From contig DAOUVS010000001.1 of NCBI GenBank assembly GCA_030667525.1, positions 1 through 56,400 on the forward strand: a stretch of 56,400 nt of DNA. The letters run 5' to 3'. Below, piece after piece: positions 25,543-47,951 of the stretch. The notes under the pieces were generated by a model that saw only the letters and a program-made list of their open reading frames with translations, had not been told where the DNA came from and did no database searches. The translations under genes and the position numbers were made by a program. The stretch comes from Candidatus Zixiibacteriota bacterium (lineage in GTDB: Bacteria > Zixibacteria > MSB-5A5 > GN15 > PGXB01). Each line of letters starts with the position of its first letter. The first letter of the stretch is position 1.

Positions 25543-25613
25543 CAAACGGGATGAACGAAAGTATATTCCAGATTGAATCGTGAATAAAAAGTTGAGAAAT
25601 GATTCAAAATCTC

Positions 25614-25642
25614 TTGCTATATTTCACGAGGTATGGTAATAT
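25614..25642 (+). promoter_or_regulatory. Possible internal sigma70-like promoter
   Basis: TTGCTA (25614-25619), a 17-nt spacer, then TAATAT (25637-25642), in the 136-nt gap before the ImcH-like gene. Confidence 0.35.
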
Positions 25643-25678
25643 GGATAAAATCAGTATTGTTTTAAAGGAAATGTAACT

Positions 25679-27196: not shown

Positions 27197-27258
27197 AAGA
27201 AGTAGACAAGTAAGACATAAATTGTATATATAAAAAGTTAATAATTGTTAAGAAGAAT

Positions 27259-27708
27259 ATGAGCGATAATAATTCCAGACGAAAATTTTTATCTTGGCTA
27301 ACCGGATTAGGGAGCGTGGCATTTCTTGGGTCGATCATTTATCCGGCGTATAAGTTTCTTGTCCCGCCTGAATCGGGCGAGGCGAATGTTTCTCAAGTGA
27401 AACTTCCTTTTACCCGTTCCGAAATTGAAGGAGATGAGAAAAAAGCCAAAACTTTTAAATTCGGCCGGACCCTTGGTTTAATTGTTTTAACCGGTGAAGG
27501 TGAACTCAAAGCAATGGCTGCCACCTGCACTCATTTGGATTGTACCGTGCAGCATCGTCCCGATCTCGGTATTATCTGGTGCTCATGTCATAATGGGCGA
27601 TATGATCTTGATGGTAAGAATATTTCCGGTCCTCCGCCCAAACCTCTTGAACAGTATATTGTCAATGAGATCAAGGGTGAAATATTTGTCTCGAAGGAGA
27701 CAGCCTAA
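27259..27708 (+). CDS. Rieske [2Fe-2S] subunit of a cytochrome bc-type complex
   Basis: 149 aa with the twin-arginine signal SRRKFLSWL. The Rieske boxes are CTHLDC and CSCHNGRYD. Confidence 0.9.
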   Translation: MSDNNSRRKFLSWLTGLGSVAFLGSIIYPAYKFLVPPESGEANVSQVKLPFTRSEIEGDEKKAKTFKFGRTLGLIVLTGEGELKAMAATCTHLDCTVQHRPDLGIIWCSCHNGRYDLDGKNISGPPPKPLEQYIVNEIKGEIFVSKETA

Positions 27709-28823
27709 TGGATGGCTCCCAAAATGGCCTGATAAAAAAAGGGTACCAATGGCTTGATGATCGGCTGCATATAAATTCGCTGGTTGAATATATGAGCAGC
27801 AAAGAGGTTCCCAAGCACAGCCATTCAATTTTCTATTATTTAGGCGGCATTACTCTTTTCTTATTTATTGTTCAGATTATTACCGGTATTCTTTTATTGA
27901 TGTATTACCGTCCCGGCGCCGATTCGGCTTATGAATCAGTAAAATTTATTGTTTCCGAAGTCTCTTTTGGATGGCTGATTCGAGCGATCCATTCATGGTC
28001 GGCAAATCTGATGGTACTGTCTGCCTTCCTGCATATGTTTACCGTCTTTTTTACCCGCGCGTATCGGAAACCGCGGGAGATGACATGGTACACCGGGATG
28101 GGGCTTTTGGCACTTTCGATGACCTTTGGTTTTTCCGGGTATCTTTTACCATGGAATGAATTGGCTTTCTTTGCTACTCGCGTTGGTACGGGTATGGCCG
28201 GTGCAATGCCGGTTATTGGTGATTATTTGATGGTGATCATGCGAGGCGGAGAAGAGGTCACCGGGGCAACTATTGGAAGATTCTTTGGTTTGCACGTTGC
28301 CATTTTACCGCTTTTGACAACAGGTCTGTTGACCTTGCATTTAGTATTTATTCAGCGTCAGGGAATGAGCGAACCGATGAACTGGGCTGGGAAAAAACAG
28401 GAAGACAAAAAATTTATGAAATTTTTCCCAAATTTCATTTATCGCGATGCATTGGTTTGGCTGATTGCATTAAACATATTGGCTCTCTTGGCAGTAATAT
28501 TCCCCGATGGTATCGGTGTGGTGCACTGGCCTTTGGGAGAGAAGGCCGACCCGTTTGCGGCTCCTCCGGCGGTTATTCGACCGGAGTGGTATTTTATGTT
28601 TGCTTTTCAGGCGTTAAAGATGTTGCCGGCTCATATCTGGTTTATTGAAGGCGAACTTTTTGGGATTATTGTTTTTGGAATAGGCGGATTAATCTGGATG
28701 TTGATTCCATTATTGGATCGTCGAGCTAATGAGAATAAACGATCTCCGATGGTCATGGCTTTTGGAACATTTATTGTCCTGTTCATTGTGGTGATGACAA
28801 TTGTGGGATATTTGGTGGAATAG
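27708..28823 (+). CDS. Cytochrome b (fused b6 + subunit IV type)
   Basis: 371 aa with the motifs SFGWLIRAIHSWSANLMV, YLLPWNELAFFAT, FFGLHVAILP and PEWYFMFAFQALK. Its start overlaps the Rieske stop (TAATG). Confidence 0.9.
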   Translation: MDGSQNGLIKKGYQWLDDRLHINSLVEYMSSKEVPKHSHSIFYYLGGITLFLFIVQIITGILLLMYYRPGADSAYESVKFIVSEVSFGWLIRAIHSWSANLMVLSAFLHMFTVFFTRAYRKPREMTWYTGMGLLALSMTFGFSGYLLPWNELAFFATRVGTGMAGAMPVIGDYLMVIMRGGEEVTGATIGRFFGLHVAILPLLTTGLLTLHLVFIQRQGMSEPMNWAGKKQEDKKFMKFFPNFIYRDALVWLIALNILALLAVIFPDGIGVVHWPLGEKADPFAAPPAVIRPEWYFMFAFQALKMLPAHIWFIEGELFGIIVFGIGGLIWMLIPLLDRRANENKRSPMVMAFGTFIVLFIVVMTIVGYLVE

Positions 28824-28835
28824 GGGCAAAATAGA

Positions 28836-30071
28836 ATGATAAAATTTGTAATTATATTTATTGGATTGTTACTGTTTTCAATTAATGGATTTGGCTCAGT
28901 TAACAACTGTATGAGTTGCCACCTTGATTTAGAAGATGAGGGCGGTAGTGCCTCCAAATTTGCAAAAGATATCCATTCGCAAAAAGGTTTAGGCTGTGCC
29001 GATTGTCATGGTGGTGATCCAACTTTGGATGATATGGATGATGTGCGCGATTCCAGGGGATTTCGCGGTGTGCCCAATCATCTGGAAGTCCCTGACTTCT
29101 GTGCGCGCTGTCATTCCGATGCCACCTACATGCATAATCATAATCCATCGTTGCCGGTAGATCAGTTGGCGAAATATAAGACCTCGATTCATGGCCAACT
29201 TTTATTTTCCGCAAAAGATAAAAAAGTAGCCAATTGTGTCTCGTGCCATTCGGTTCATGAAATCGGTAATGGTCAGATGCCTTATTCCAGTACTCATCCG
29301 TCCAATTTGCCGGCCACCTGCGCGAAATGCCACTCCGATAAAGATTATATGGCTGAATACAAGATACCGACCGACCAATTTGAAAAATACAGTTCCTCGG
29401 TTCATGGTCAGGCGCTTCTCGAGCGAGGTGATCTCGGTGCACCGGCCTGTAACGATTGTCATGGAAACCATGGTGCTGCTCCTCCCGGAGTATCCTCACT
29501 GGCCGCGGTATGTGGTGTTTGTCATGCCCTTGAAGCTGAACTATTTGAGAAATCACCGCATGCCGATGCTTTTTTAGAAAATGATTTTCCGATGTGCGAA
29601 ACTTGTCATTCCAATCATGATATTGTAAAACCATCTGATAAAATGATAGGTACTGCCGAATCTTCTCTATGTACCGAGTGCCATGCTGCCGATGATGGCA
29701 CCATCGGGTTGCCAACCGCTGACAGCATCCTGACTTCGTTGAATAATCTTGTTTTGGCACATCTCAATGCTAAACAAAGTCTTGATGAGGCGATATTAAA
29801 AGGAATGATGACAACTAACGAAGAGTTTCTATTAAAAGAAGTTGACCAGTCGCTGATTCAGGCTCGGACTTTGATTCATTCTTTTGATATGGATTCGGTC
29901 GCTCCCAAAGCGATGGAAGGTATTGCTAAAGCTGATACGATCATCGTAAATTCAGCCGGGCTTATCGATGAGTATTATTTCCGGCGCAAAGGTTTGGCGG
30001 TTGCTACTCTGATAATTACATTTCTGGCCTTTATGTTATATCGAAAAATACGGAAAATCGAGCAGAAGTAA
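28836..30071 (+). CDS. Membrane-anchored nonahaem c-type cytochrome (c-subunit of the adjacent Rieske/cyt b complex)
   Basis: 411 aa with an N-terminal signal. I count 9 CxxCH. A C-terminal TM anchor reads GLAVATLIITFLAFMLY. It lies 12 nt after cytochrome b. Confidence 0.8.
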   Translation: MIKFVIIFIGLLLFSINGFGSVNNCMSCHLDLEDEGGSASKFAKDIHSQKGLGCADCHGGDPTLDDMDDVRDSRGFRGVPNHLEVPDFCARCHSDATYMHNHNPSLPVDQLAKYKTSIHGQLLFSAKDKKVANCVSCHSVHEIGNGQMPYSSTHPSNLPATCAKCHSDKDYMAEYKIPTDQFEKYSSSVHGQALLERGDLGAPACNDCHGNHGAAPPGVSSLAAVCGVCHALEAELFEKSPHADAFLENDFPMCETCHSNHDIVKPSDKMIGTAESSLCTECHAADDGTIGLPTADSILTSLNNLVLAHLNAKQSLDEAILKGMMTTNEEFLLKEVDQSLIQARTLIHSFDMDSVAPKAMEGIAKADTIIVNSAGLIDEYYFRRKGLAVATLIITFLAFMLYRKIRKIEQK

Positions 30072-30099
30072 CTCAAATCAAAATTCTCCAAATTGGCAA

Positions 30100-30133
30100 T
30101 AAAAAAAGCTGCCGGGATAAATATCCCGACAGC
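30100..30133 (-). terminator. Rho-independent terminator for the minus-strand barrel gene
   Basis: On the minus strand, stem gctgtcgggat / atcccggcagc (one mismatch) is followed by TTTTTTT (complement of 30101-30107). Confidence 0.7.
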
Positions 30134-30164
30134 CAACCTAAATGCATTAACATAGGAGAGAAAC

Positions 30165-32351
30165 TTAGAATACGAATCTAATGCCGGATCTAATCATAAA
30201 CATTGAACCGGATTCAATTCCATACACATACCCTTCGTTATCTTTCAATTCAGCATACTCACCATCTGCCGTCCAAACCACATCTTTTGAAAGCATATAT
30301 TCAAGTCCTAATGAGAAATTCATCAATTGATAATCGAGGTTTGAATAATCATGCATATGTAGAAATGTGAAATCCTGATGGCCAAGATCGGTGATATCAT
30401 TAATCTCGTCATAAAGACGATCGGTTATATCAGGGAAAATGACCTGATCCATCTCGGCGGTCGATTTATTGTAGCCAACCGTACCATGGAATTTCAGTTT
30501 AGGTGAATAAATATAAGATGTCGTAAGATAAAGATTCTGGGACTTGGTTTCATAATCAGACATGGCATAGGCAGAACCATAATGAACTGCTTGATATAGG
30601 TCGTCGACCGGATCGCTCACGGCGTCCGTATACATATGACCTGCTCAGCCATCGAACAGTGCAATGGCGACTGGTCCCCGCGATTTTTTAAACGCGTAAG
30701 AACCTCCAAACGATACGGCCAAATTCTGATTAAGATTAACATTTAAAGCCAGGCTTGGCTGCATCGAAAAATGACTAACATCAAGGGAATCGAGATCGTC
30801 GTTCTTATCATATTTCGCTTTAAATCCAAAATTCAGATTTACTTTATTATTAGGCCGCCAGCTGGAGGTCACATCAATAACATGTGCCTGCGTCGGAGCC
30901 GTTGTAATATCCTGATAGCGAAGAGCCTCCCTTTGCCAATAATACACAAAGGCTGTACCATCAACCGGATTTAAAACATCGCGGCCTCGTGCCTCAAATA
31001 AACCTTTGGCTGAGGTAAAAGGATTTGAAATACTCTCAAATCGATATTTGATTGATGCCGAATGTCTTAATCCTTTACGGAAGCGGATTTTCGCTTGACC
31101 AAACAGAGTTGTTGTGGCATCGGCATCTTCGGCGGGATAATACTCGCGATCAATCGACCGTAATCCAGCAGTAAAAGATGCTGTCAGTTTTCTGTTCAAT
31201 CTTGAGATAATCTCAACCGAACCTCGCAGATCGACTCTGTTTAGCGAAGAATATCGAGTGAAATCGAAATCCTTTGGCGTACTGGATTGTCCATCCCTAA
31301 AGAGAGGCAGATCAATAAAAGTACTATCAACTTCAAGTTTGGTGACGCTGAATTTTGCAATCAAGCGGGTAAGTTTAGCCAGCGATGTTGAATAAAAAGC
31401 AGAACCGCTAATTGCTGAGCTTGACAAATCGTTGTTTTTGTTGGTCGCCTTACTAAAACCGATTGAACTGCCATAACTGCTATTGCCAGCATCCCCTTTA
31501 TAAGTCACCTTGTGTGATAACTTCTCGGTTTTGGGATATACACCAACTGGCAAGTTCGCATCTTCATAAATCAATCGGGATTCAAATTCAGCGCCGGAAC
31601 CGCCATTGACCGGATGCCTGGCATCGTCAAAATGGCCAAAATTAGCAGGGGCTTTCGATTCAAAAGCGCGATAGTCAAATTGATAACCGACTGTACTTTT
31701 GCCAATATCGGCTTGCAGTCCTGCCATAATCTGATGAGTAATTTTGTCGATGGTGGCCGTGCTGGATGTTATATGGCAACTGAAGCAATGATTGCTGGCA
31801 AGATGTTGTTCTGTTCCGGTCTGTAAAACTGTCCGATGCGCCGCAATTAGTCTGATATTATTTTTCTTAGACAGCCTAAGATTAAAGTTACTTTCAACTT
31901 CTTTGCGGTGCACGTAATAGTCAGTACCCGGATCAAGGATTTCATGGGTCAGTATTTTACCACCACCAGCTTCTCTGGTTTCCAGGTTGGTTAGCAAATC
32001 CTGTTCGGCCTGTTTGTACATCGACCGATATTTAAAACCGGCAGAAAAACCATCGCCGATCCTGCTTGACATATCAGCCACGATATTATTCTCATCACGA
32101 TATTTGCCATTTAATGAGTAAATATGGTTGATGCCGCGTGATAGATAATCAATACTGAATTCAGGCAGGAATTCATCATCGCCATTTCTAAACTCGCCGA
32201 TTTTTTTTGTATAATCGGTAAAATCGGTATAACTGGAACCGACCCAAACCGAATATTTCTCGTCAATCGCATCTTCTTGACCCGATGCAACCATGAAGGT
32301 TAGCGCGATAAGAAGGAGGTTTTGAAGCGTAATTGTTAAAAATCTTTTCAT
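30165..32351 (-). pseudogene. MtrB/PioB-like decahaem-associated outer-membrane barrel, interrupted by one in-frame TGA
   Basis: The 568-aa ORF (30645-32351) and the 156-aa ORF (30165-30635) are in the same frame, separated only by TGA (30645-30647) and 3 codons (...ALFDG*AGHMYTDAV...). Combined, they make ~728 aa with a signal peptide. Beta-strand periodicity runs throughout and the protein ends ...IRSGIRFVF. The gene lies directly downstream of the decahaem gene, as in mtrAB/pioAB/mtoAB. Confidence 0.65.
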
Positions 32352-32360
32352 TATATCCTC

Positions 32361-33320
32361 CTATCTTGTCAGGGCATTGCCTGAAGTTGAAATTGTCTGA
32401 GACGGCATATCACTGCCATGAATCTCAGTATGACATTGAGTACATTTGGTCAATATACCGATTTTCCAGCCATCGACTGTTGTTGTACCTGCTCGTTCCG
32501 GCGCCTGAGGGTTTTCAAAATCGCCATCCCATCCTTCAACTGCGGCATGAAAATGCATCGCATGGCAATTGAGGCAAAGTGCCGGTTCTGTCTGGGTTAA
32601 AAGATTGTCCGCTACCGTTCCGTGCGGCGAATGACAAAGCATACAATCTTCATTAACCGGGGCATGTTCAAAAATGAATGGCCCCTCTTTTTCCGGATGA
32701 CAGCTAAAACATAATTCCCGGGTGGAGCTTTCGTGTGCAAAGGTCGCTTGTCCACCATGCGGATCATGGCAGTCAAGACAGCTCATGTTGCCCTCTTTTA
32801 GGGGATGATGCGATGGCATAAAGGCAGCGGCTTTGACATCAAGATGACATTCGGTGCAAAGATTATTAATCTTTCCGGTTGTCATTGCTTCATACTCAGA
32901 GTGAATGGAATGACAGCTTGAGCAATTCATGTCAGCGGCGTTATGGTCAGTCATCGCCCAATTACTAAAATTGTCAGTATTGTGACAATTTAAACAAGTT
33001 GACTTTCCATCAAACTGATCCTGTTTGGCCGGGTTAATGATCATAGCCGGATCCTGATTTTCGACATGTGCCGATCCCGGGCCATGACACGATTCACACG
33101 AATTTTCTGAGGCCTTACTCAGCAATGTACCATGCATGGTTTTTGCAAAATCGTTTCCCACATCCTCATGGCAATCCAGACATACGCTACTTCCTACAGA
33201 AACAGCGTCTGCCGGTGGCATCTTGGCTTTCACCGATGTCGATGATAAAACGATCATGCAAAAAAACATAACCATGGAGACCCCGAATAGAATTGACTGA
33301 GGTCTTGTTTGTTTTTTCAT
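32361..33320 (-). CDS. Periplasmic decahaem c-type cytochrome, MtrA/MtoA/PioA (DmsE) family
   Basis: 319 aa with a signal peptide. I count 10 CxxCH. The C-terminal CTQCHTEIHGSDMPSQ...GNALTR is typical of the family, and the size matches MtrA (~330 aa). Confidence 0.85.
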   Translation of the reverse strand: MKKQTRPQSILFGVSMVMFFCMIVLSSTSVKAKMPPADAVSVGSSVCLDCHEDVGNDFAKTMHGTLLSKASENSCESCHGPGSAHVENQDPAMIINPAKQDQFDGKSTCLNCHNTDNFSNWAMTDHNAADMNCSSCHSIHSEYEAMTTGKINNLCTECHLDVKAAAFMPSHHPLKEGNMSCLDCHDPHGGQATFAHESSTRELCFSCHPEKEGPFIFEHAPVNEDCMLCHSPHGTVADNLLTQTEPALCLNCHAMHFHAAVEGWDGDFENPQAPERAGTTTVDGWKIGILTKCTQCHTEIHGSDMPSQTISTSGNALTR

Positions 33321-33369
33321 CCTAGTCCTTTTCCCTTGTTTGTGGTTGGTTTAATATATAATTAATATT

Positions 33370-33984
33370 TTATTTTCTGAGTCCGCGTGCGAATATTGGT
33401 ACATTATTTTTCATGATTTCTTCCGGTTTAAAATCACCGCCCTGCATGCCTTTCCAAAGGTTGATGCCGAGAACGCACTCGGTAATCATGCCGGTAAAAC
33501 AATTGGCCGTTATTATAGGATTGATAGGCCTAATCAAATCATTTTTCTTAAGCCGTTCCAATGCTCTTCTGAGAATAGTTATATATGGAAGTCGTAAAGT
33601 ATTAACGATATTTTTTGTCAAGGTATGTTTTTTAAGAGAACAGAAAAGAAGGAGGCGGAATAACTCAGGATTTGATAAATAGATTTGAAATATATGTTTC
33701 GATATGGCAAAAAGAATTTCCTCGATATCATTTAGTTTTTCGATCTCCTTTGAAAGAGAGGAGGTATCGATTTTCTCCTTTAATGCTTTTAGGACTTCTG
33801 AAAACAGTTCTTCTTTTGAGGAGAAATATCTATATAAAGCCGGTTCGGAGATACCGCATGATTTGGCCAGTGAAGCGACCGTCGTTTTTTCATATCCTAA
33901 TTTTGAGAATGATTCAGTTGCTTTTTCAATAATCTGCTTTCGGCGCTCCGCAGAGGCCAATCTTTTTTGTTTTTTCTCAGTCAT
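33370..33984 (-). CDS. TetR/AcrR-family transcriptional regulator
   Basis: 204 aa. The N-terminal HTH reads RRKQIIEKATESFSKLGYEKTTVASLAKSCGISEPALYRYFSSKEELF. Confidence 0.9.
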   Translation of the reverse strand: MTEKKQKRLASAERRKQIIEKATESFSKLGYEKTTVASLAKSCGISEPALYRYFSSKEELFSEVLKALKEKIDTSSLSKEIEKLNDIEEILFAISKHIFQIYLSNPELFRLLLFCSLKKHTLTKNIVNTLRLPYITILRRALERLKKNDLIRPINPIITANCFTGMITECVLGINLWKGMQGGDFKPEEIMKNNVPIFARGLRK

Positions 33985-33994
33985 AATTAATCTT

Positions 33995-34023
33995 TAACTA
34001 CAAGTTAGTTATCGTTCACTAAC
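33995..34023. promoter_or_regulatory. Overlapping palindromes, candidate TetR operator
   Basis: taact-aca-agtta (33995-34007) and gttagt-N8-actaac (34004-34023), 11-40 nt upstream of the tetR start. Confidence 0.3.
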
Positions 34024-34155
34024 ATAATATATTTATAGATTTGTCACAGAATTGTCAAGAAAAAAAAGGGGAGAATGATATATTATTCACATTGGGGAAT
34101 AATTGGATATTTGATATAACTCAGTAACTTATTTTAAGGTATTTAGTTACGGAAA

Positions 34156-34188
34156 TAAAAAAAGGCGCCCGTTAACGGCGCCTTTTTT
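34156..34188. terminator. Bidirectional rho-independent terminator after the tetrahaem gene
   Basis: aaaaaaaa-GGCGCC-cgttaac-GGCGCC-tttttt: a GC stem with an A-run before and a T-run after. Confidence 0.85.
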
Positions 34189-34204
34189 AAAAGATATTGT
34201 TATC

Positions 34205-34714
34205 TTATCCCTTTTTTTCCTCAGCCTTTTTGGCCATTTCATGCGAGCCTTTTGTTTTCATTTTCTCGAAATCGAATTTTTCTTTGGCGCGGAATTTCTC
34301 GGGAACATTGTCATGACAGACTTTACAGGTCTTCTCATCCGGCATGATCAGACCGGCGGCTATTGCTTTCTCATGATCTTCCATTGTTGATTTTTTCTTA
34401 TAATCGGCTCCGGCGCCATGACAGGCTTCACACTGAACACCTTCCAATAATACACCCTTAGCGGTAGTTCCGGTCGTGTGACACTTGACACAATCCTTAT
34501 CCTTTTTCTCTTCGTCTGACAGAAGATCATAGACTTTGGCATGTTTGGACTCGGCCCATGAAGGATGAATGCCGTCTTTTTTGTGGCACATTTTACATTT
34601 CTTTTCGCCAACAAATTCATGTTTGGTTTTTGCTTCTTCGCCTGAAAATGCCAGACTGCCAAAAAGCAAAACGACGGCGAGAAGAGTGGTGAGGATAGTT
34701 ACTTTTTTTAACAT
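34205..34714 (-). CDS. Periplasmic tetrahaem c-type cytochrome
   Basis: 169 aa with a signal peptide. It has 4 CxxCH (CKMCH, CVKCH, CEACH, CKVCH) and a Lys-rich tail. Confidence 0.85.
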   Translation of the reverse strand: MLKKVTILTTLLAVVLLFGSLAFSGEEAKTKHEFVGEKKCKMCHKKDGIHPSWAESKHAKVYDLLSDEEKKDKDCVKCHTTGTTAKGVLLEGVQCEACHGAGADYKKKSTMEDHEKAIAAGLIMPDEKTCKVCHDNVPEKFRAKEKFDFEKMKTKGSHEMAKKAEEKKG

Positions 34715-35133: not shown

Positions 35134-35511
35134 ATGCTTCAGAAACTTGTCTGGCTTTCCATTGCCGGAGCTCTGGGAACACTTGCTCGTTATGGGTTGT
35201 CAGGTTATCTCAATAGAATTAACGGTGCCTCTTTTCCTTGGGGGACAGTTGCTGTCAATATAATTGGATGTCTTCTGGCCGGACTGGCTTGGGCGCTGTT
35301 TGAAAAAAGATGGCCTGTTTCGGTTGATATTCGGATGATTGTATTAATCGGTTTTATGGGTGCTTTCACCACCTTTTCGGCTGTGGTCTTAGATACCGGT
35401 GAGCTGCTCCGTTCAGCAGAGTGGATGCGAGCAGTGGCCAATGTTTTATTGCAAAACGGCGTCGGAATTATTGCTTTGTTTATTGGAGTGGCACTCGGAC
35501 GGTTAGCCTAA
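35134..35511 (+). CDS. crcB: Fluoride ion channel CrcB/FluC
   Basis: 125 aa with 4 TM helices. Motifs are GALGTLARY, GTVAVNIIGC and GFMGAFTTFS. Confidence 0.9.
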   Translation: MLQKLVWLSIAGALGTLARYGLSGYLNRINGASFPWGTVAVNIIGCLLAGLAWALFEKRWPVSVDIRMIVLIGFMGAFTTFSAVVLDTGELLRSAEWMRAVANVLLQNGVGIIALFIGVALGRLA

Positions 35512-35722
35512 ATTGGTATATGAAGGTGGTTGTTCTGCAAATTGTTAATATCACCGGCTATAATAGACATCCCGAATATTATTATAGTCAGTAATTATTT
35601 CAAATTATTTGTCTGTTTTGTGTGTGATTGTATCTTCTTCATACTATTGGAGTTGTCTTTTTAAATGTAGGATTTATCCCATACAACATGAGTCATTATG
35701 AAACGACGGTATCAAATATTAC

Positions 35723-35750
35723 TTGACAAAATGGACTTATTCTATATACT
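35723..35750 (+). promoter_or_regulatory. Possible promoter of the aromatic supraoperon leader
   Basis: TTGACA (35723-35728), a 16-nt spacer, then TATACT (35745-35750). It sits only ~7 nt before the leader ATG, so the leader ORF would be nearly leaderless. Confidence 0.35.
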
Positions 35751-35756
35751 ATTTCA

Positions 35757-35885
35757 ATGAGTAACAAAACCACATTTAAATCCATTGCGAATTTTTCCGA
35801 TAACTATTATTGGAATAGCTTTTATTTTTGGTGGTATCAATTGCCAAATGATAGTGGATTAAATGCTGTTATGGTTTCTCCCTAA
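35757..35885 (+). CDS. Aromatic-rich leader peptide of the trp/aro supraoperon (attenuation sensor)
   Basis: The 42-codon ORF MSNKTTFKSIANFSDNYYWNSFYFWWYQLPNDSGLNAVMVSP is too short for the ORF track. Codons 17-27 (35805-35837) are YYWNSFYFWWY, i.e. 9 of 11 aromatic, with tandem TGG TGG at 35829-35834. A terminator follows it, just before trpE. Confidence 0.7.
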   Translation: MSNKTTFKSIANFSDNYYWNSFYFWWYQLPNDSGLNAVMVSP

Positions 35886-35909
35886 CAAAAGAGAAAATAA
35901 ATTGTTTAA

Positions 35910-35943
35910 CCCGCTATCGTAAATCGATAGTGGGTTTTTTTTT
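35910..35943 (+). terminator. Attenuator terminator upstream of trpE
   Basis: Stem cccgctatcg / cgatagtggg (10 bp including one G-U) with loop taaat, followed by nine T. It ends 16 nt before the trpE ATG. The upstream segment gatagtgg (35850-35857) duplicates the 3' arm and can pair with the 5' arm as an antiterminator. Confidence 0.8.
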
Positions 35944-35959
35944 GGCATAAGAGGCAAAT

Positions 35960-37423
35960 ATGAAAAATGAGAAAACAACAACCGACAGTTCCCAAAAAAG
36001 CGGCAAAGTCATGAAAGTAATGACCAAAGAGATGCCGGCTGATTTGGAAAACCCGGTCTCGGAATATTTGAAACTCAAAAATTATGGAGCCAAAATCCTT
36101 CTGGAAAGTGTCGAGAGCGGAACGATTTTGGGGCGGTATTCCTTTATAGGGATCAAGCCGAGTTCCAAAATTATTATTGATCAGAATGAACTGGTCATTA
36201 AAAATGGCGGGCCAGATATTAAAATTCCGCATTCCGGAGTCGATTCTCCCTTGGAATCTATTAAAGATATATTGGATGATTTCAAGCTGGAGGTTTCATC
36301 AGATTACCCGCCTCTTCTTGGGGGAGCGGTTGGCTATATCAGCTATGATTTTGTTCGTTTCTTTGAAAAAATTCCGAACGAAACGGAAGACTCTCTTAAT
36401 ATGCCGTTGGCTCTTTTTTATCTGATTGATACGCTGTTGGTTTTTGATCATGTTAAACGATGCTTAAAAATTATGACTTTGGTTGAAGAGGGCCAGGAAG
36501 ATTCTGCACTGGATAAGATTATTCAAATCGTAAAAAGGCTTTCATCACCTCTGATGATGCCAGATTATTCTTCCGTCAATAAAAGCACAAAAAATCTCAA
36601 ATCCAATTTTGAAAAAGAGGAATTCTGCGAGGCGGTAAGAAAAGTAAAAGAATATATTGTCGCCGGTGATGCTTATCAATTGGTGATTTCACAGCGATTT
36701 AGCGGAACCACTGAGTCGGAACCGTTTATGATTTATCGCGCCTTGAGAATGCTCAATCCTTCTCCTTATATGTTTTTCCTCGATTTTGATGACATCAAAC
36801 TGGTTGGTTCATCACCTGAGGCTTTGGTTCGGCTTGAAAAAGGAGTTGCCACGGTCAGACCGATTGCCGGAACCAGACCGAGAAGCGAAGATATGGAAGA
36901 AGATAAAAAACTCGAAGAACAATTACAATCCGATGAAAAAGAAAAAGCTGAGCATGTTATGCTCGTTGATCTGGGTCGTAATGATCTTGGGCGCTGTTGT
37001 GAAATCGGTTCGGTCAAGGTGACCGATTTCATGAAAACCGAGCGCTATTCTCATGTGATGCACATGACTTCAAATGTTGTCGGCAGATTAAAACCTGATT
37101 TGGATCAATTCGATCTGTTTAAAGCTGCTTTCCCGGCTGGAACCGTTACCGGTGCACCGAAGATAAAAACAATGCAATTGATTGAGGGACTTGAAAGCAC
37201 CCGCCGTGGCCCGTATGCCGGAGCGGCAGGATATTTCAGTTTGACCGGTGATATGGATTGGTGCATTACTATCAGAACGATAATAATGAAAGATAAAGAC
37301 TTTTTCCTGCAGGCCGGCGCCGGAATTGTCGCTGACTCTGTCCCCGAAAAAGAATACCAGGAAACCTGTGACAAACTCGCGGCTCTCAAAAAAGCAATTG
37401 AAATGGCCGAGGAGGGATTCTAA
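35960..37423 (+). CDS. trpE: Anthranilate synthase component I
   Basis: 487 aa with the motifs LVGSSPEALV, IAGTRPR, LVDLGRNDLGR, FPAGTVTGAPK and GPYAGAAGYF. Confidence 0.95.
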   Translation: MKNEKTTTDSSQKSGKVMKVMTKEMPADLENPVSEYLKLKNYGAKILLESVESGTILGRYSFIGIKPSSKIIIDQNELVIKNGGPDIKIPHSGVDSPLESIKDILDDFKLEVSSDYPPLLGGAVGYISYDFVRFFEKIPNETEDSLNMPLALFYLIDTLLVFDHVKRCLKIMTLVEEGQEDSALDKIIQIVKRLSSPLMMPDYSSVNKSTKNLKSNFEKEEFCEAVRKVKEYIVAGDAYQLVISQRFSGTTESEPFMIYRALRMLNPSPYMFFLDFDDIKLVGSSPEALVRLEKGVATVRPIAGTRPRSEDMEEDKKLEEQLQSDEKEKAEHVMLVDLGRNDLGRCCEIGSVKVTDFMKTERYSHVMHMTSNVVGRLKPDLDQFDLFKAAFPAGTVTGAPKIKTMQLIEGLESTRRGPYAGAAGYFSLTGDMDWCITIRTIIMKDKDFFLQAGAGIVADSVPEKEYQETCDKLAALKKAIEMAEEGF

Positions 37424-37992
37424 TGATACTGATTATAGATAATTACGATTCTTTCACCTGGAATCTGGCTCAATATATTGGCGAGTTTGGAAAATCGTTT
37501 CAGGTAATTAGGAATGACGAAATCAGTTTGGATGATGCAATAAAACTTGATCCGTCTCATTTGGTTATTTCGCCCGGACCCGGTCGTCCGGAAAACGCAG
37601 GTGTCTCTTGTGAATTAATTTCTCACTTCACTGGAAAAATTCCAATTTTGGGCGTTTGTCTGGGACATCAATGTATTGCTTATGCTTTTAAAGGTAAAAT
37701 TGAAAATGCCGCAATTTTAATGCATGGAAAAACATCAATGGTCTTTCATAATGGGGTCGGTATTTACAATGGCCTGCCGAACCCGTTTGAGGCGACTCGT
37801 TATCACTCCCTTATGGTTGGTGAAGATGATCTGCCGGAAAATTTGCAGATCACTGCTCATACTTCAGAAGGCGAGATTATGGGGATCAGAATCAATGGTT
37901 ATCCGGTTGATGGTGTCCAATTTCATCCTGAATCTATTCTAACCAAACATGGCAAATTATTGATCTCCAACTTTCTCAACGGCAGACAATAG
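37423..37992 (+). CDS. trpG: Anthranilate synthase component II (glutamine amidotransferase)
   Basis: 189 aa with the motifs IDNYDSFTWNL, GVCLGHQ and GVQFHPES. Its start overlaps the trpE stop. Confidence 0.93.
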   Translation: MILIIDNYDSFTWNLAQYIGEFGKSFQVIRNDEISLDDAIKLDPSHLVISPGPGRPENAGVSCELISHFTGKIPILGVCLGHQCIAYAFKGKIENAAILMHGKTSMVFHNGVGIYNGLPNPFEATRYHSLMVGEDDLPENLQITAHTSEGEIMGIRINGYPVDGVQFHPESILTKHGKLLISNFLNGRQ

Positions 37993-37993
37993 G

Positions 37994-39016
37994 ATGATCA
38001 GGGAAGAGATAAATAAAGTTCTGGATGGTGTTGATCTTTCGACTGATGAAAGCAACCATGTCATCGATTTAATAATGTCAGGCAAAGTTTCGCATATCCA
38101 AATTGCCGCATTCCTGACTGCGCTGCGTCAAAAGGGGGAGACCTCTGATGAAATAATCGGAGCTGCGCGGGCGATGCGGGATAAGGTTGTTCGTATCAAT
38201 CATCACCAAGAAGCTCTTTTCGATAATTGTGGAACTGGTGGCGATGGCGCCGGAACTTTTAATATTTCAACAACAACATCATTTATTCTGGCTGGATGCG
38301 GTTTAGCTATTGGGAAACATGGCAATCGTTCGGTTTCAAGTCAGTGCGGAAGTGCCGATGTTCTTCAGGAGCTTGGTGTTGATATAATATTAACTCCGGA
38401 ACAGGTCGGGTTATGTATCGACGAAATCGGAATCGGTTTTATGTTTGCACCGGCTCTTCATCCGGCGATGAAAGAAGTTGTCCCGGTAAGAAAAGAGCTC
38501 GGCTTTCGGACGATATTTAATCTTCTCGGACCGATGACCAATCCGGCTTTTGCGACGCATCAAATGATCGGCGTATTTTCGGGATCATACACGTCATTAC
38601 TCGCTGATGCCGCCGGTGAGCTGGGGATAAAAAGAGTTGGTGTCGTTTATAATCAATGCGGTATTGATGAGATAACGACTGCTGGCCCCAATAAGATCAA
38701 CTTTGTTTTTAATGACACAAAGGAAGAGTTGCTCTTCGATCCTGAAGAGTACCAGTTTAAAAAATGCTCAATAGAAGATTTGGCCGGTGGAAACGCCGAA
38801 GAAAATGCCGGGATTACCCGTTCGATATTAAACGGTGAGTTGGGACCAAAAAGAGATACTGTCATATTAAACAGTGCTATCGGCCTGCTAATAGCCGAGA
38901 AGGTCGGCGATATCAAAGAGGGAATTGAACAGGCGGTCGAAGCAATTGATTCCGGTCAGGCGACTGATAAGTTAGATAAACTGATAGCATTTACAAGGGG
39001 GCTTTCAAATGCTTAA
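37994..39016 (+). CDS. trpD: Anthranilate phosphoribosyltransferase
   Basis: 340 aa with the motifs CGTGGDGAGTFNISTT and KHGNRSVSSQCGSADVL. Confidence 0.95.
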   Translation: MIREEINKVLDGVDLSTDESNHVIDLIMSGKVSHIQIAAFLTALRQKGETSDEIIGAARAMRDKVVRINHHQEALFDNCGTGGDGAGTFNISTTTSFILAGCGLAIGKHGNRSVSSQCGSADVLQELGVDIILTPEQVGLCIDEIGIGFMFAPALHPAMKEVVPVRKELGFRTIFNLLGPMTNPAFATHQMIGVFSGSYTSLLADAAGELGIKRVGVVYNQCGIDEITTAGPNKINFVFNDTKEELLFDPEEYQFKKCSIEDLAGGNAEENAGITRSILNGELGPKRDTVILNSAIGLLIAEKVGDIKEGIEQAVEAIDSGQATDKLDKLIAFTRGLSNA

Positions 39017-39785
39017 TGAAATAGTAGCAAAGAAGAAACAACAGTTACAGGCAATTGATCAAAAAAGAGAAATAGAAAAAATAAGCGAGGCTATTGATGA
39101 TTTGCCTCCGACCAGAAGCTTGAAGAGAAGTATCTGCAAGGACTACACAATATCAATTATTGCCGAAATTAAAAGACGTTCGCCGTCTAAAGGGATTCTT
39201 ATCGAAAATCTTCAGGTCGATAAAATGGTAACAATATATGAAGAAGCAGGTGCCTCGGCGATTTCTGTTTTGACCGAGAGTAGTTACTTTGACGGTTCCG
39301 TTGATGATTTAAAGCTGGCGAAAAAAAGTAGTACTCTTCCGATTTTAAGGAAAGATTTTATTTTCGAAGAATATCAGGTTTGGGAAAGTCGATCTATTGG
39401 TGCCGATGCAATTTTGCTGATTGTCGGTCTTATGTCTCCTGATAAGATTAATCATCTGTACATGGTTGCCGAGCAGTTGGACCTGGAAGTTTTGTTTGAA
39501 GTTCATGATGTGTGTGAATTTGAAATCTTAAGACTTATTCATCCCCAGATTATTGGAATCAATAATCGTGATCTGAAAACTTTTGAAGTAAATCTGGAAA
39601 CCTCTGAGACTCTGGCACCGATGATCCCGCCTCGAATAGTTAGAGTTGCCGAAAGCGGCATTAATAGCCGGGACGATATTATCAGAATGGAAGAGAGTTG
39701 CATTGATGCTGTTCTTATCGGCGAGGCAATTATCACAAATCCCGATCCGGGAAGAAAAATCAGGGAGCTATTAGGCAAGCAATGA
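39009..39785 (+). CDS. trpC: Indole-3-glycerol-phosphate synthase
   Basis: 258 aa with the motifs IIAEIKRRSPSKG, ISVLTE, LRKDFI and GINNRDL. Confidence 0.93.
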   Translation: MLNEIVAKKKQQLQAIDQKREIEKISEAIDDLPPTRSLKRSICKDYTISIIAEIKRRSPSKGILIENLQVDKMVTIYEEAGASAISVLTESSYFDGSVDDLKLAKKSSTLPILRKDFIFEEYQVWESRSIGADAILLIVGLMSPDKINHLYMVAEQLDLEVLFEVHDVCEFEILRLIHPQIIGINNRDLKTFEVNLETSETLAPMIPPRIVRVAESGINSRDDIIRMEESCIDAVLIGEAIITNPDPGRKIRELLGKQ

Positions 39786-40408
39786 CGACGAGAATAAAAA
39801 TATGCGGCATAACTAATCTGGATGATGCAAAAAAGGTCGTGGAATTAGGTGCTCATGCCATCGGATTTGTGTTTGCCGAAAGCCCGAGAAAAATTGAGCC
39901 GTCAGTTGCCAGAGAAATTTCAAATTTGCTACCACCATTTATTAGCAAGATCGGTGTTTTTGTCAATGAAGAGATAAAGACAATCAAAGAGATGTATGAT
40001 TACTGTTTTTTGGATGCGGTACAGTTGCACGGAGATGAAGACAGCCAATATATCAATGCGCTATCATTACCATTTATTAAAGCGTTTAAAGTTAGCGGCA
40101 ATGAAGTGATCAAACAGATTGAAAAATTTGGTTTGCCATATTTTCTGCTTGATGCATTCGATAAAAATCTGTCAGGTGGGACCGGAAAAAAATTCGACTG
40201 GCAGATTGCAATTGAAGCTTCAAAACTTGGAGATATCATCTTGTCTGGCGGATTGAACCAAGCCAATATCAGAGAAGCACTTGAAACAGTTAATCCGTAT
40301 GCGGTTGATGTTAGCAGCGGAGTTGAAAAAAGTCCAGGCAAGAAAGATTTTCAAAAAATGGAATCAGTAATTAATGAGGTTCATAGATGGAACAGCCGAA
40401 TAAATTAG
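39782..40408 (+). CDS. trpF: Phosphoribosylanthranilate isomerase
   Basis: 208 aa with the motifs IKICGIT, VQLHGDE, LLDA...GGTGKKFDW and VDVSSGVE. Its ATGA overlaps the trpC stop. Confidence 0.92.
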
Positions 40409-41610
40409 GATACTTTGGCGACTATGGTGGCCGTTTTGTTCCCGAGACGCTTATGGCGGCTCTTCTGGAACTTGAGGAAGGTTACAAAGACGCGCTAAGA
40501 GATCCTGAGTTCAAATCCGAACTTAAACGGTTGCTAAGTACCTATGTTGGCCGTCCTACTCCTTTGTATTTTGCCAAGAGTTTAACGATGAAATATAAAG
40601 GTGCTCAGATATATCTTAAACGGGAAGATTTGGCTCATACCGGCGCACATAAAATCAATAACTGTATCGGACAGGGATTATTGGCCCGAAGGATGAACAA
40701 AAAACGGATTGTCGCCGAAACTGGCGCCGGGCAACATGGAGTTGCGGTTGCTACGATAGCAAGTTTGTTCAATCAGAGTTGTGTTATCTATATGGGTATT
40801 GAAGATATGAAACGGCAGGCACCTAATGTTGCTCGGATGAATCTTCTTGGAGCAGAAGTAGTCCCGGTTGATTCGGGAAGTAAAACATTAAAAGATGCAA
40901 CCAATGAAGCAATTCGTGACTGGGTAACAAATGTCGAAACGACTCATTATATTATCGGTTCCACGGTTGGTCCGCACCCATATCCAAAATTAGTGCGCGA
41001 TTTCCAAGCGGTTATCGGTCGGGAAACAAAGATCCAAATTAAAAAACAAATCAATCGTTTGCCGGATCAGATTATTGCTTGTGTTGGCGGCGGAAGCAAT
41101 TCTCTGGGGATGTTTTACCCATTTATTAAAGATAAATCTGTTAAGCTGACTGGTGTGGAATCGTCGGGCAATGGACTGAATACTCATCTGCATGCGGCAA
41201 CTCTAACCAAAGGCAAACCGGGTGTACTACATGGAAGTTTTAGCTATTTGCTGCAAGACAAATTCGGGCAGGTGAAAACATCACATTCAATAGCGGCCGG
41301 ACTTGATTATCCCGGAGTCGGCCCGGAGCATAGTTTCCTCAAAGATCAAAGCCGGGTGAACTATGTTTCAGTGACCGATAAGGAAGCATTATCAGCATTT
41401 ATCGAACTGACCGAAACCGAAGGAATTATTCCTGCACTGGAGTCTTCGTTTGCTCTGGCGTATGCCAAAAAGATTGCATCAAAATTACCGAAAAAATATA
41501 TCCTCGTTGTCAATCTTTCGGGGCGTGGCGATAAAGATCTGGCTAATGATGAAGTTGCATCTTTGATAAATAAACGACTTGAAGCAAGACAGAAAAAGGG
41601 GAGAGAATAA
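40387..41610 (+). CDS. trpB: Tryptophan synthase beta chain
   Basis: 407 aa with the motifs [31 protein letters not shown] and GGGSN. Confidence 0.95.
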
Positions 41611-41616
41611 ACAGTT

Positions 41617-42438
41617 ATGAATAATCACCTTCCCATATCTATTTCGAGTGCATTTGAAGAACTCCGGAAGAATAATAAAAAGGCACTTATGCCGTATTTA
41701 ACCGCTGGATACCCGGATGCTAAAACATTTATTTTATTATTAAAAGAGATCATCAAAGCCGGTGCCGATATGGTAGAAATCGGTATTCCATTTTCCGATC
41801 CGTTAGCCGATGGAAAAACAATCCAAAGTTCATCCCAAATTGCACTACAGAATGGGACCAATATCGATGAAATCTTTCGGCAACTTGGTGAGCTAGAGGA
41901 CAGATACAAAGTACCGCTGATAATTATGAGTTACTATAATCCTGTTTTACAGTATGGCATATCTAAATTTTTGAAGAAGTCAAAAACAGCTGGCGGGTTT
42001 GGTTTGTTAATACCAGATATGATCCCCGACGAAGGAATAGCGATTGAAAATAAATGCCGGACATCCGGCGTTGATCTGATATACTTATTGGCGCCGACCT
42101 CAAGTGCTTTGAGGCGTAAGCTTATTCTAAAGAGATCGCAAGGCTTTATTTATCTGGTGTCGGTGGCCGGGGTTACCGGAGCGAGAAAATCTCTTCCCGG
42201 AAAATTGAATCGTTGGATAACTCAGATAAAAAAAGAAAGCTGCTTACCTGTTTGTGTCGGTTTTGGAATCTCCGACCTGACTCAAGCGAAATCGGTGGCG
42301 CGGGTCGCCGATGGTGTGATAATAGGAAGTGCTATTATTGATATCATAAAAAAATCTTCAGGTTCACAGGAGGCTGTATCAAATGTGGGAAGATTTATTG
42401 GAAAAATTAGAAAAGGAATGGACAATGTCAAAAGTTAG
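41617..42438 (+). CDS. trpA: Tryptophan synthase alpha chain
   Basis: 273 aa with the motifs MPYLTAGYPD, EIGIPFSDPLADG and GFGIS. Confidence 0.93.
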   Translation: MNNHLPISISSAFEELRKNNKKALMPYLTAGYPDAKTFILLLKEIIKAGADMVEIGIPFSDPLADGKTIQSSSQIALQNGTNIDEIFRQLGELEDRYKVPLIIMSYYNPVLQYGISKFLKKSKTAGGFGLLIPDMIPDEGIAIENKCRTSGVDLIYLLAPTSSALRRKLILKRSQGFIYLVSVAGVTGARKSLPGKLNRWITQIKKESCLPVCVGFGISDLTQAKSVARVADGVIIGSAIIDIIKKSSGSQEAVSNVGRFIGKIRKGMDNVKS

Positions 42439-42799
42439 AGGTATCAGAGGTGCCATCAAGGTTGCCGAGAACAGCGAGGAAGAAATTATTTCCGCAACCA
42501 AAGAGCTGTTTTTGAAAATGATAGAATCAAATGATGTCAAACCTGAAGATATCGCCAGTGTCTTTTTTACAGCGACCTCGGATTTAAATGCAGAATATCC
42601 CGCCTATGCGACCAGAGGTCTGGGATTTGATTTGGTCCCGCTTCTTTGCGCAAGAGAAATAGAAGTACCCAAAGGAATGAGTCGATTAATCAGAATATTA
42701 ATACATGTCAATACAGAAAAATCTCAAGAAAAAATAAAGCATCAATATTTGGGTGAAACCAGCAAGCTCAGACCTGAATTGTGCGGAGGAAAGCAATGA
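42425..42799 (+). CDS. aroH: Monofunctional chorismate mutase, AroH class
   Basis: The track ORF starts at 42383. I prefer the ATG at 42425 because [21 protein letters not shown]...[22 protein letters not shown]...IRILIHVN aligns from residue 1 with Bacillus AroH (MMIRGIRGATTV...). Confidence 0.85.
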
Positions 42800-43812
42800 T
42801 GATCGTAGTAATGAAATCGGACGCCACTGTTAAACAGACCAGCACAGTGATAAAAAAAATCCAGGAGCTTGGGTTTGAGCCGCATCTGTCAAAAGGTGAG
42901 GAAAAAACAATTGTCGGGATGGTCGGTAGCGGCAAAAAGGTTGAACCGGAAATTTTTATGGCAATACCGGGAGTAGATTCGGTTGTACCTATCCTAAAAC
43001 CGTTTAAACTGGCCAGTAGAGAATTTCAAAAAAGACCAACAATTATTCCTTTTAATGGTTTCACCATTGGTGGCGATGAGGTTATCGTTATGGCCGGACC
43101 CTGCTCGGTTGAAAGCCGGGAGCAGACTTTGGAAGCGGCCGATGCGGTCGTCAAGGCCGGAGCCAAAGTGTTGAGGGGTGGAGCCTACAAACCAAGAACT
43201 TCACCATACAGTTTTCAGGGACTTGGCGAAGAAGGTCTGAAAATTCTAAAGGAAGCTTCTGACAGAACCGGTCTGGCAATTGTAACCGAAGTAATGTCAC
43301 CCGATAAAGTCGAATTAGTGGCAAAGTATGCCGATATTCTTCAGATCGGAGCGAGAAACATGCAGAATTATTCGCTGCTTGAGGCAGTCGGCAAATCAAC
43401 TCGTCCGGTACTTTTGAAGCGCGGTATGATGTCAACCATCGAGGAACTTCTGATGGCGGCAGAATATATTCTGGCCAACGGTAATCCGAATGTGATGCTC
43501 TGTGAGCGTGGTATCAGGACATTTGAAAAATATACCCGTAACACACTGGACATCTCTGCCGTCCCGATAATCAAACAATTGAGCCATCTGCCTGTTATTA
43601 TTGATCCGAGTCATGCCTCGGGCAAAAGAGAACTGGTCGATCCGATGTCAAAATGTGCCATTGCTGCCGGAGCCGACGGATTAATAATTGAGGTGCATCC
43701 GCATCCCGAAGAAGCCTTATCAGACGGAGCGCAGAGTCTGCATCCGGAAGAGTTTGATAAATTGATGATTGGACTAAAAACTATCGCCGCTGCGGTTAAC
43801 AAAAAGATATAA
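42796..43812 (+). CDS. aroF: 3-deoxy-7-phosphoheptulonate (DAHP) synthase, class I-beta with N-terminal ferredoxin-like regulatory domain
   Basis: The track frame begins at a GTG at 42781. I prefer the ATG at 42796, 5 nt after GGAGGA. The N-terminal ~75 aa form a regulatory domain ([14 protein letters not shown]...). The catalytic core shows [28 protein letters not shown] and IIDPSHASG. Confidence 0.9.
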
Positions 43813-44687
43813 TGAAGCTTAAGAATCTAAATGTTTTTATAATCGGCTTGGGACAAATTGGCGGATCAATAGCCAAGGCACTGACAGCAAATAAATCAGT
43901 GGTCAGTGTGTACGGCTATGATATAGATAAATCGGTAAGAAAAGCAGCCAAAGACAACGGGTATATTAACAACCAGGCAGAATCAATAAGTGATGGTATC
44001 AACAAAGCTGATTTAATTATTCTTGCGACACCGATTCGGACAACGATAGAACTTATCCCGGAAATTATCAGAGAGACCAATCCAAATCAGGTTGTCCTTG
44101 ATGTTGCTGGAATTCAATCCGGGATTCTGGAGACAGTATCGAAACATAATAATCAAATAAATTATATCAGTGGTCACCCGATTGCAGGCAATGAAGGGAC
44201 CGGATTGGAAGCATCGTCCGCTGATAAATTCAGGAATGCAATATTTTTTCTTTCACCGGTGTTGTCCGCCAAAAAAGAATCAATTGATATTGTTGTCGAA
44301 TTGATTAAAGCACTTGATGCGATACCGGTAATAATCGATCCCAACAAACATGATTTTCTGATTTCAATGACAATTAATCTTCCATACTTGATTGCATTAA
44401 CTCTTATGAAAATGGCCTCCAAACAGGAAAGCTCTTATGAAGATTTCTGGCAACTGGCCGGAGGAAGTTTCAAAGGTGCCACCAGAGTCGCTTCGTCATC
44501 GCCGGAATTAACGCTTGATATGTTTATGACCAATAGAGAAAATATTTTAAACATAATTGAAAAATTCCAGGCTGAATTATCGGAAGTTGCCGAGATGATA
44601 AGTAAAAAAGATGAGGTTGCTCTGCGCTCCCGAATTACTCTGGCGAAAGCTCAAAAAGATAATATGAACCGGGTTCAAAATGGATAA
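43812..44687 (+). CDS. tyrA: Prephenate dehydrogenase
   Basis: 291 aa with the Rossmann motif VFIIGLGQIGGSIAKAL and the motif ISGHPIAG. Confidence 0.85.
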   Translation: MKLKNLNVFIIGLGQIGGSIAKALTANKSVVSVYGYDIDKSVRKAAKDNGYINNQAESISDGINKADLIILATPIRTTIELIPEIIRETNPNQVVLDVAGIQSGILETVSKHNNQINYISGHPIAGNEGTGLEASSADKFRNAIFFLSPVLSAKKESIDIVVELIKALDAIPVIIDPNKHDFLISMTINLPYLIALTLMKMASKQESSYEDFWQLAGGSFKGATRVASSSPELTLDMFMTNRENILNIIEKFQAELSEVAEMISKKDEVALRSRITLAKAQKDNMNRVQNG

Positions 44688-45963: not shown

Positions 45964-45964
45964 G

Positions 45965-47942: not shown

Positions 47943-47951
47943 AGTAAAGTT

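Follow-up and report, generated by a model that had tools for sequence, protein, structure and literature searches.

A predicted leader-peptide attenuator, probably responsive to tryptophan and tyrosine, upstream of a trp-tyrA-shikimate supraoperon in Zixibacteria

Which amino acids decide whether an operon for aromatic amino-acid synthesis is transcribed? This question is raised by a stretch of 56,400 nucleotides (nt) from a Candidatus Zixiibacteriota bacterium (contig DAOUVS010000001.1, positions 1 to 56,400; hereafter the window), in which a long series of aromatic biosynthesis genes headed by trpE is preceded, at 35723-35959, by a promoter, a short open reading frame (ORF) rich in aromatic codons and a terminator. 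The initial annotation of this region proposed a classical ribosome-mediated attenuator whose leader peptide senses tryptophan (Trp), tyrosine (Tyr) and phenylalanine (Phe) together. Our analyses of the window and of its relatives lead us to regard as probable a ribosome-mediated attenuator that responds to Trp and probably to Tyr, and not to Phe, and that governs one 14-kb aromatic supraoperon. The parts of this proposal are held with different degrees of confidence, which is high for a conserved leader-peptide attenuator as such and only slightly lower for an input of Trp; an input of Tyr is somewhat favoured, and an input of Phe appears unlikely. The parts of the attenuator and the operon are located on the forward strand.

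The leader ORF (35757-35885, 42 codons followed by UAA) encodes MSNKTTFKSIANFSDNYYWNSFYFWWYQLPNDSGLNAVMVSP and has homologous ORFs 5' of trpE in 17 related loci. Its codons 17-27 (35805-35837; TAT TAT TGG AAT AGC TTT TAT TTT TGG TGG TAT), translated as YYWNSFYFWWY, form the putative regulatory run, in which 9 of the 11 residues are aromatic (4 Tyr, 3 Trp and 2 Phe) and which contains a tandem TGG TGG at 35829-34. Among the 67,995 stop-free segments of 11 residues present in the six frames of the 56.4 kb, only three contain at least 8 aromatic residues, and these three overlap one another inside the leader ORF. The translation and this count confirm the ORF and the run as first annotated, and the initial sequence description was accurate, the ORF, the aromatic run, the terminator and the 16-nt gap before trpE all being found again.

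The folding of 35757-35945 gives a minimum free energy (MFE) of -50.5 kcal/mol, with a z-score of -5.2 against shuffled sequences. The terminator is formed by a 5' arm (region 3, 35908-35919), which is common to the antiterminator, and by a 3' arm (35925-35936) which, together with the nine U at 35935-35943, constitutes region 4 (35925-35943). Its stem, announced as 10 bp long, has 12 pairs (6 of them G-C) closed by a 5-nt loop, whereas the nine U and the distance of 16 nt between the U run and the trpE ATG (35960) are as first described; the trpE Shine-Dalgarno sequence AAGAGG is read at 35949-35954. Region 2 (35849-35858, UGAUAGUGGA, encoding N-D-S-G), located inside the leader ORF, is a copy of the terminator 3' arm and provides the 5' strand of the antiterminator. 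The duplication of this arm by gatagtgg (35850-35857) and its complementarity to ccgctatc (35911-35918) had already been recognised, and both are conserved in relatives with compensatory changes. When region 4 is withheld, the MFE structure is a whole antiterminator hairpin (35848-35920, -20.3 kcal/mol), composed of the outer helix 2:3 and of inner helices which enclose the leader stop codon (35883-35885) in the apical loop. Antiterminator and terminator are mutually exclusive, as both use region 3.

In the nascent leader, region 2 has another partner, region 1 (35779-35788, AAUCCAUUGC, codons 8-11), which lies upstream of the aromatic run in the window and reaches pair probabilities up to 0.99; its AAAUCCA/UGGAUUU pairing is retained in the related loci L161 and L163. 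A different partner had been proposed at first, 35802-35813 pairing with 35844-35855. The two segments are indeed complementary (11 pairs with one bulged A), but this helix has an ensemble probability of about 0 and, when forced, is worse by 7.6 kcal/mol (-12.8 versus -20.4); this pairing is not favoured and was rejected, region 2 pairing with 35779-35788 instead. More distant relatives have as their region 1 a degenerate version of region 3 that ends in the first UAU and abuts the first UGG, as in L167 (AGCCCGCUAU directly followed by UGG).

Is this element restricted to the window? We found 19 homologous attenuators in 17 distinct loci belonging to Zixibacteria, KSB1 and FCB-group relatives, with TrpE proteins 46-87% identical to that of the window. 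TrpE scans of genome and metagenome contig collections reached a best identity of 60% and provided the leaders L048 (KSB1 genome), L001 (FCB-group genome) and L081-L083 (metagenome contigs). A protein database gave TrpE relatives of 58-87% identity, the contigs encoding them provided L161-L173, and the close relatives (84-87%) were obtained only by way of this database and these contigs. All 19 share a promoter of the TTGACA/TATACT type, a leader ORF in which Tyr codons flank a Trp run, a terminator that reads CCCRCYAUC-loop-GAURGYGGG-U run and an in-ORF copy of the terminator 3' arm (GAUAGUGGG, encoding D-S-G). The comparison of trpE leaders between relatives, suggested as a check with the initial annotation, thus shows that the small ORF and its Trp/Tyr-rich run are conserved, and covariation is seen as well.

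The pairing and the compensatory changes of each helix were counted on a MAFFT alignment of the 19 sequences (A1), in which region 2 occupies columns 30-39 in 19/19 attenuators. For the terminator helix 3:4, 96.1% of the cells are paired and compensatory changes affect 8 of the 12 pairs; none of 500 shuffles was as good, and partner columns slid along the alignment were paired at 33-53%. For the antiterminator helix 2:3, the corresponding values are 89.5% of cells and 3 of 10 pairs, with a covariation score reached by one shuffle out of 500 and slid partner columns paired at 32-57%. This second pairing survives because a U of region 2 faces a region 3 position varying between G and A. RNAalifold, run on its own alignment, independently predicted the 2:3 helix as a consensus; for the inner helices of the antiterminator it gave none across the 19 homologues, each sequence having its own version of them. 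With region 4 withheld, the 2:3 helix is the outer stem in 19/19 sequences, with energies from -13.6 to -30.2 kcal/mol. A covariance model of the family (R1) matches only the collected loci among 173 TrpE loci from many phyla, no further member being found among these and the other loci, about 150 in number, containing nothing comparable; it matches the window once (35838-35942, 85 bits).

Two of the loci contain tandem attenuators before trpE (L165, 9589-9762 and 9776-9984; L171, 9612-9779 and 9797-9981), each complete with a separate Trp/Tyr-rich leader ORF, region 2 and terminator, and both copies score with R1. The collection also contains leaders of other kinds upstream of trpE (L028, L100, L108, L109, L117, L122, L123, L125, L137, L140, L141; L065, L071). 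A distinct Trp-only leader family in loci resembling those labelled Syntrophaceae/Deltaproteobacteria is exemplified by MENIYRIKQGNYWWWQNTEGEVCLAPS and has a conserved ...E(A/V)CP(V/A).. tail, and a Lentisphaerae-type group has a short ...NRWWLWR leader. The operons of both groups are devoid of tyrA and their leaders are not Tyr-rich.

To which end products, then, would the attenuator of the window respond? The regulated operon (35960-50007) comprises 16 genes in an order shared by relatives. Its first part contains trpE, trpG, trpD, trpC, trpF, trpB, trpA and the genes of a type I chorismate mutase and of a DAHP synthase, and its last part tyrA (prephenate dehydrogenase), aroA, aroE, aroC, aroK, aroB and aroQ. 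With intergenic gaps of -62 to +9 nt, it forms one 14-kb unit. This gene content bears out the earlier statement that the downstream operon makes Trp, Tyr and chorismate; pheA (prephenate dehydratase) is absent from the operon and from the rest of the window. Codons were counted in the 14-codon regulatory segments of the 14 leaders that precede tyrA-containing operons (196 codons), and compared with the background in the window proteins (Tyr 2.8%, Trp 0.5% and Phe 4.0%). Tyr represents 28.6% of these codons, which is an enrichment of about 10 fold (p about 2e-39), and Trp 22%, whereas Phe, with 4.6% (9/196), does not differ from its background (p=0.38). Furthermore, the leaders of the 14 tyrA operons have 3-5 Tyr codons each, against 1, 1, 3 and 2 in four operons consisting of trpEGDCFBA and DAHP synthase only (one-sided Mann-Whitney p=0.0018, kinship being ignored).

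The joint sensing of Trp, Tyr and Phe first proposed could be defended from the window itself. Besides the two TTT at codons 22 and 24, its leader contains F7 and F13, which brings Phe to 4 of 31 codons (p=0.03); 2 of these are within the 14-codon run (p=0.10). A stall at the Phe codons would permit the antiterminator, and the chorismate mutase and the common pathway also serve the synthesis of Phe. The family does not follow this pattern: Phe is at the background level cited above, the closest relative, L161, carries YNY in place of FYF, so that F22 and F24 are replaced by Tyr through a single-base difference (TTT versus TAT), the run of L163 is free of Phe, and the lack of pheA concerns the operon and the rest of the window alike. 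Phe was consequently rejected as a conserved third signal, and we consider a leader sensing the three amino acids together to be improbable. The part of the initial claim that stands concerns Trp and Tyr, both conserved and enriched, with a Tyr number which tracks tyrA. Judged from these sequences, Trp and Tyr would be the conserved inputs and Phe at most a quirk of the window genome.

The position of the aromatic run relative to the switch was evaluated by folding the leader with a ribosome mask that hides all of the RNA as far as 12 nt beyond the first A-site base. A stall anywhere in codons 1-27 leaves the 2:3 helix a probability of about 1, which falls to 0.83 for codon 28, to 0.50 for codon 29 and to 0 for codon 30 and those after it; therefore the aromatic run, whose last residue is Y27, ends at the last fully permissive codon. 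The distances are also conserved in the family, as 12-18 nt separate the last Trp/Tyr codon from region 2 in 12/19 sequences, the stop codon follows the start of region 2 at exactly 33 nt in 12/19, and region 3 begins 19-28 nt past the stop codon in 14/19. Thus, a ribosome that has reached the stop codon is located within the antiterminator hairpin. With a leader ORF, a terminator and an antiterminator conserved through compensatory changes and an aromatic run placed at permissive stall sites, the classical ribosome-mediated attenuator of the initial annotation is supported.

The tail of the leader after D-S-G is of about 8 codons in most relatives (35859-35885 in the window). A Pro is present within the last three codons of 10 of the 14 leaders having a tail of at least 7 codons (SP, PT, PG, PM, PA, YP or DPS immediately before the stop codon), and this region is often UCUCC in the RNA, where it forms the 5' strand of a small hairpin round the stop codon. 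The C-terminal Pro could reflect a constraint on the RNA or be a signal for slow termination.

From these elements we propose the following mechanism. Transcription would start at the leader AUG or 1 nt before it, and a ribosome would translate the 42-codon leader from this leaderless start while the RNA polymerase moves ahead. If charged tRNA-Trp or tRNA-Tyr were scarce, the ribosome would stall within codons 17-27, leaving region 2 (35849-35858) and the rest of the 3' part of the leader free; region 2 could then pair with region 3 (35908-35919) in an antiterminator of about -20 kcal/mol before region 4 is made, and the polymerase would read through into trpE. If both tRNAs were charged, the ribosome would enter the 5' strand of the hairpin and halt at the UAA, 33 nt past the start of region 2; with the ribosome inside the hairpin, region 3 would pair with region 4 and the terminator would end transcription 16 nt before trpE.

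Several observations weigh against this reading, and the main weak point is the predicted start of the leader. The sigma-70-type promoter (35723-35750) consists of TTGACA (35723-35728), a 16-nt spacer and TATACT (35745-35750), its hexamers agree with the consensus at 11/12 positions, and similar TTGACA-N16/17-TATACT-like hexamers are present 5' of every homologous leader. The predicted transcription start is A35756 or A35757. In the window, L161 and L163, the leader ATG is exactly 6 nt past the -10 hexamer in spite of differing N-terminal peptides, and the transcript is therefore predicted to begin at the AUG or 1 nt before. No Shine-Dalgarno sequence precedes the leader ATG in the window, and there is no other in-frame start, which is why leaderless translation is predicted. 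These sequences suggest a leaderless start for the leader ORF of the window; a start located 1-2 nt further 3' would abolish leader translation. More distant relatives have leaders of 13-44 nt with AGGAG-like sites. Leaderless leader peptides of attenuators have been mapped in Deinococcus deserti, among them that of trpEGD, whose start is at -1 (PMC4007540); there the starts were mapped by differential RNA sequencing (dRNA-seq), whereas that of the Zixibacteria leader is predicted from promoter geometry alone. An inverted repeat located about 40 nt 5' of the -35 hexamer (35667-35684 in the window) is conserved at aligned positions (alignment A2; TGGGGCATGCCCCA in L161, TGGGTGATATCCCA in L163 and TAGGATTTATCCCA in the window), and might serve to bind a protein or form a small hairpin.

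The missing Shine-Dalgarno sequence also favours the view that the choice is not mediated by the ribosome, either because a protein, a tRNA or a metabolite sets it, or because the ORF is the gene of a functional small protein and an upstream unit ends at the terminator. In the same sense, parts of the peptide look conserved (D-S-G and the C-terminal S/T-P). D-S-G is explained, however, by the nucleotide-level conservation of GAUAGUGGG, and what is conserved of the ORF is its frame, its Trp run and the position of its stop, the other parts of the peptide not being so. The 16 nt between the U run and trpE leave no room for a second promoter, and the attenuator stays with trpE whatever the upstream gene (crcB, tRNA-Leu and penicillin-binding-protein gene, GT87, others). 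No Rfam family reaches its threshold in the region, where no T-box or riboswitch is found even at E values up to 10. The Trp_leader (RF00513, 17.5 bits for a gathering score of 41) and His_leader (RF00514, 25.9 bits for 49) candidates were rejected as matches driven by the terminator, as is the weak PyrG leader match obtained at E values up to 10. Control by TRAP was also rejected. TRAP binds 11 (G/U)AG repeats (PMC3064811), and a leader of this type would have about that number, 2-3 nt apart and in overlap with the antiterminator, whereas 35757-35959 contains only 6 irregularly spaced (G/U)AG triplets, 35-57 nt apart. A choice that is not mediated by the ribosome is judged very unlikely.

Three other observations weighing against the ribosome-mediated switch come from the folding. 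At equilibrium, the full-length RNA adopts the terminator form (P about 0.99); since the terminator always wins in the complete molecule, equilibrium folding does not separate the two states and the switch must be kinetic, as in the trp operon of E. coli. In a ribosome-free transcript ending at region 3, the antiterminator is preferred (P 0.998), unlike in E. coli trp, and termination may thus depend on active translation into the hairpin. Finally, the modelled footprint of a ribosome at the stop codon begins about 8 nt 3' of region 2 and does not cover it, so the blocking of 2:3 rests on a steric argument. In addition, every sequence used here is metagenome-derived.

The remaining opposing points concern Tyr, and are also those on which a Trp-only attenuator could be built, that is a real switch in which the Tyr codons are kept for RNA pairing, in region 1 or in local hairpins with region 2, or inherited by descent. 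Some Tyr codons have a role in the RNA: in many relatives the first UAU belongs to the degenerate region 3 copy described above for L167, and part of the Tyr signal is structural there; the MFE fold of L170 has its YYY codons paired with region 2. Operons that lack tyrA nevertheless have 1-3 Tyr codons in their leaders, and the association between Tyr number and tyrA is drawn from 18 sequences that are phylogenetically non-independent. For the F-Y-F leader of aroR in Corynebacterium glutamicum, Tyr availability is reported to be without effect on transcription (PMC11802643). On the other side, the enrichment of Tyr of about 10 fold is made of 3-5 Tyr codons in each leader, whose arrangement varies (YWWWYYY, YWWYWYY, WYWYYY, YY..FYF..Y), written with both UAU and UAC, and most of them are not region 2 partners in the predicted folds. 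Their number is higher when tyrA is in the operon (the Mann-Whitney comparison given above), and in the window all of them lie inside the zone where a stall permits the antiterminator. We therefore hold a Trp-only attenuator to be a minor possibility, less remote than triple sensing, and retain the attenuator responding to Trp and probably to Tyr.

The surroundings of the element differ between relatives. The fluoride-channel gene crcB (35134-35511) lies just 5' of the trp promoter in the window, in which no fluoride riboswitch or other Rfam family is found at gathering score. At this site, the two closest relatives, L161 (2506-2591) and L163 (9545-9630), carry a tRNA-Leu(CAA) gene together with a penicillin-binding-protein gene. 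The window contains no tRNA gene at all, has crcB at that site and retains a tRNA-like remnant of about 20 nt at 35513-35532, a sequence which suggests a rearrangement at a tRNA gene. Further upstream, multihaem c-type cytochromes (Cytochrome_C7, Paired_CXXCH, MtrC/MtrF-like) are densely clustered at 20854-34714, together with domains of cytochrome b and b561 and with a TetR regulator; this cluster suggests extracellular or periplasmic electron transfer. Within the operons of L161-L173, the DAHP synthase has an N-terminal ferredoxin-like regulatory domain (PF18152, DAHP_snth_FXD). In the Thermotoga enzyme, a domain of this type mediates feedback inhibition by Tyr and Phe, and by analogy its presence would fit Tyr as a control signal.

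A wider interpretation can be put forward as a tentative one, clearly less assured than the preceding proposal: Zixibacteria, KSB1 and relatives could share an undescribed attenuator family that integrates Trp and Tyr over a 16-gene supraoperon. This family would have Tyr codons tuned to tyrA, a leaderless start in the clade of the window, and a 'ribosome inside the antiterminator', with the stop codon at a fixed 33 nt beyond region 2 and a conserved C-terminal Ser/Thr-Pro that may hold the ribosome in place by slowing termination. If the attenuator proposed for the window is correct, leader-peptide attenuation would operate in a candidate phylum of the FCB group represented by metagenomes only, and the codon content of a leader would predict which end products control its operon, here Trp and Tyr for a trp-tyrA-shikimate supraoperon. 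The triad GAUAGUGGG / CCCRCUAUC / GAUAGYGGG would also constitute a compact conserved RNA motif for annotating trp and aro operons in Zixibacteria and KSB1.

How does this element compare with known systems? Like trpL of E. coli, the leader is a short ORF with tandem Trp codons 5' of trpE, region 3 is common to an antiterminator and to an intrinsic terminator, and the position of the ribosome would decide between them. In contrast to trpL, the leader of the window is three times longer, has 3 Trp and 4 Tyr codons, lacks a Shine-Dalgarno sequence and continues into the antiterminator for 33 nt after region 2 begins; it would control 16 genes, among which are tyrA and those of the complete shikimate pathway, and has no similarity to trpL or RF00513 at the level of sequence or model. 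Leaders responding to several amino acids are textbook knowledge in enterobacteria, with thr (Thr and Ile) and ilvGMEDA or ilvBN (Leu, Val and Ile). They resemble the present case in that one leader peptide mixes the codons of amino acids that depend on the operon, and differ from it by the amino acids and by the RNA families involved. We know of no attenuator combining Trp and Tyr. Vitreschak and colleagues are said to have predicted trp attenuators in Bacteroidetes/Chlorobi in 2004. No description of a Trp and Tyr leader, of this RNA family or of attenuation in Zixibacteria was found in the literature covered, outside of which most subscription papers lie.

A likeness in gene content is seen with the aro-trp-tyrA supraoperon of Bacillus subtilis, where trp genes, aro genes and tyrA are also in one unit and where a choice between antiterminator and terminator is also made in the leader. 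There the choice is made by the TRAP protein bound to 11 (G/U)AG repeats and is specific for Trp (PMC3064811, PMC1173090), whereas the window has a leader peptide in place of TRAP repeats. Song et al. (2005) gave a catalogue of trp-tyrA supraoperons, some with predicted attenuators of unspecified type, in a TyrA review in which the knowledge of tyrA regulation in prokaryotes is described as sparse (PMC1173090). As to mixed aromatic leaders, the initial annotation overstated their unusual character, because a precedent exists in aroR of C. glutamicum, whose Phe-Tyr-Phe leader lies upstream of aroF and responds to Phe and reportedly not to Tyr (Neshat et al. 2014, as summarised in PMC11802643). 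The likeness to the window lies in the mixed leader (F-Y-F is also present in the window), the DAHP synthase in the operon and ribosome stalling, and the differences in the lack of Trp codons in aroR and in an unrelated organism, sequence and operon. Our results for the Zixibacteria locus are thus consistent with a Trp/Tyr variant of the textbook trp attenuator; this variant is what is new, the known principle of attenuation being unchanged.

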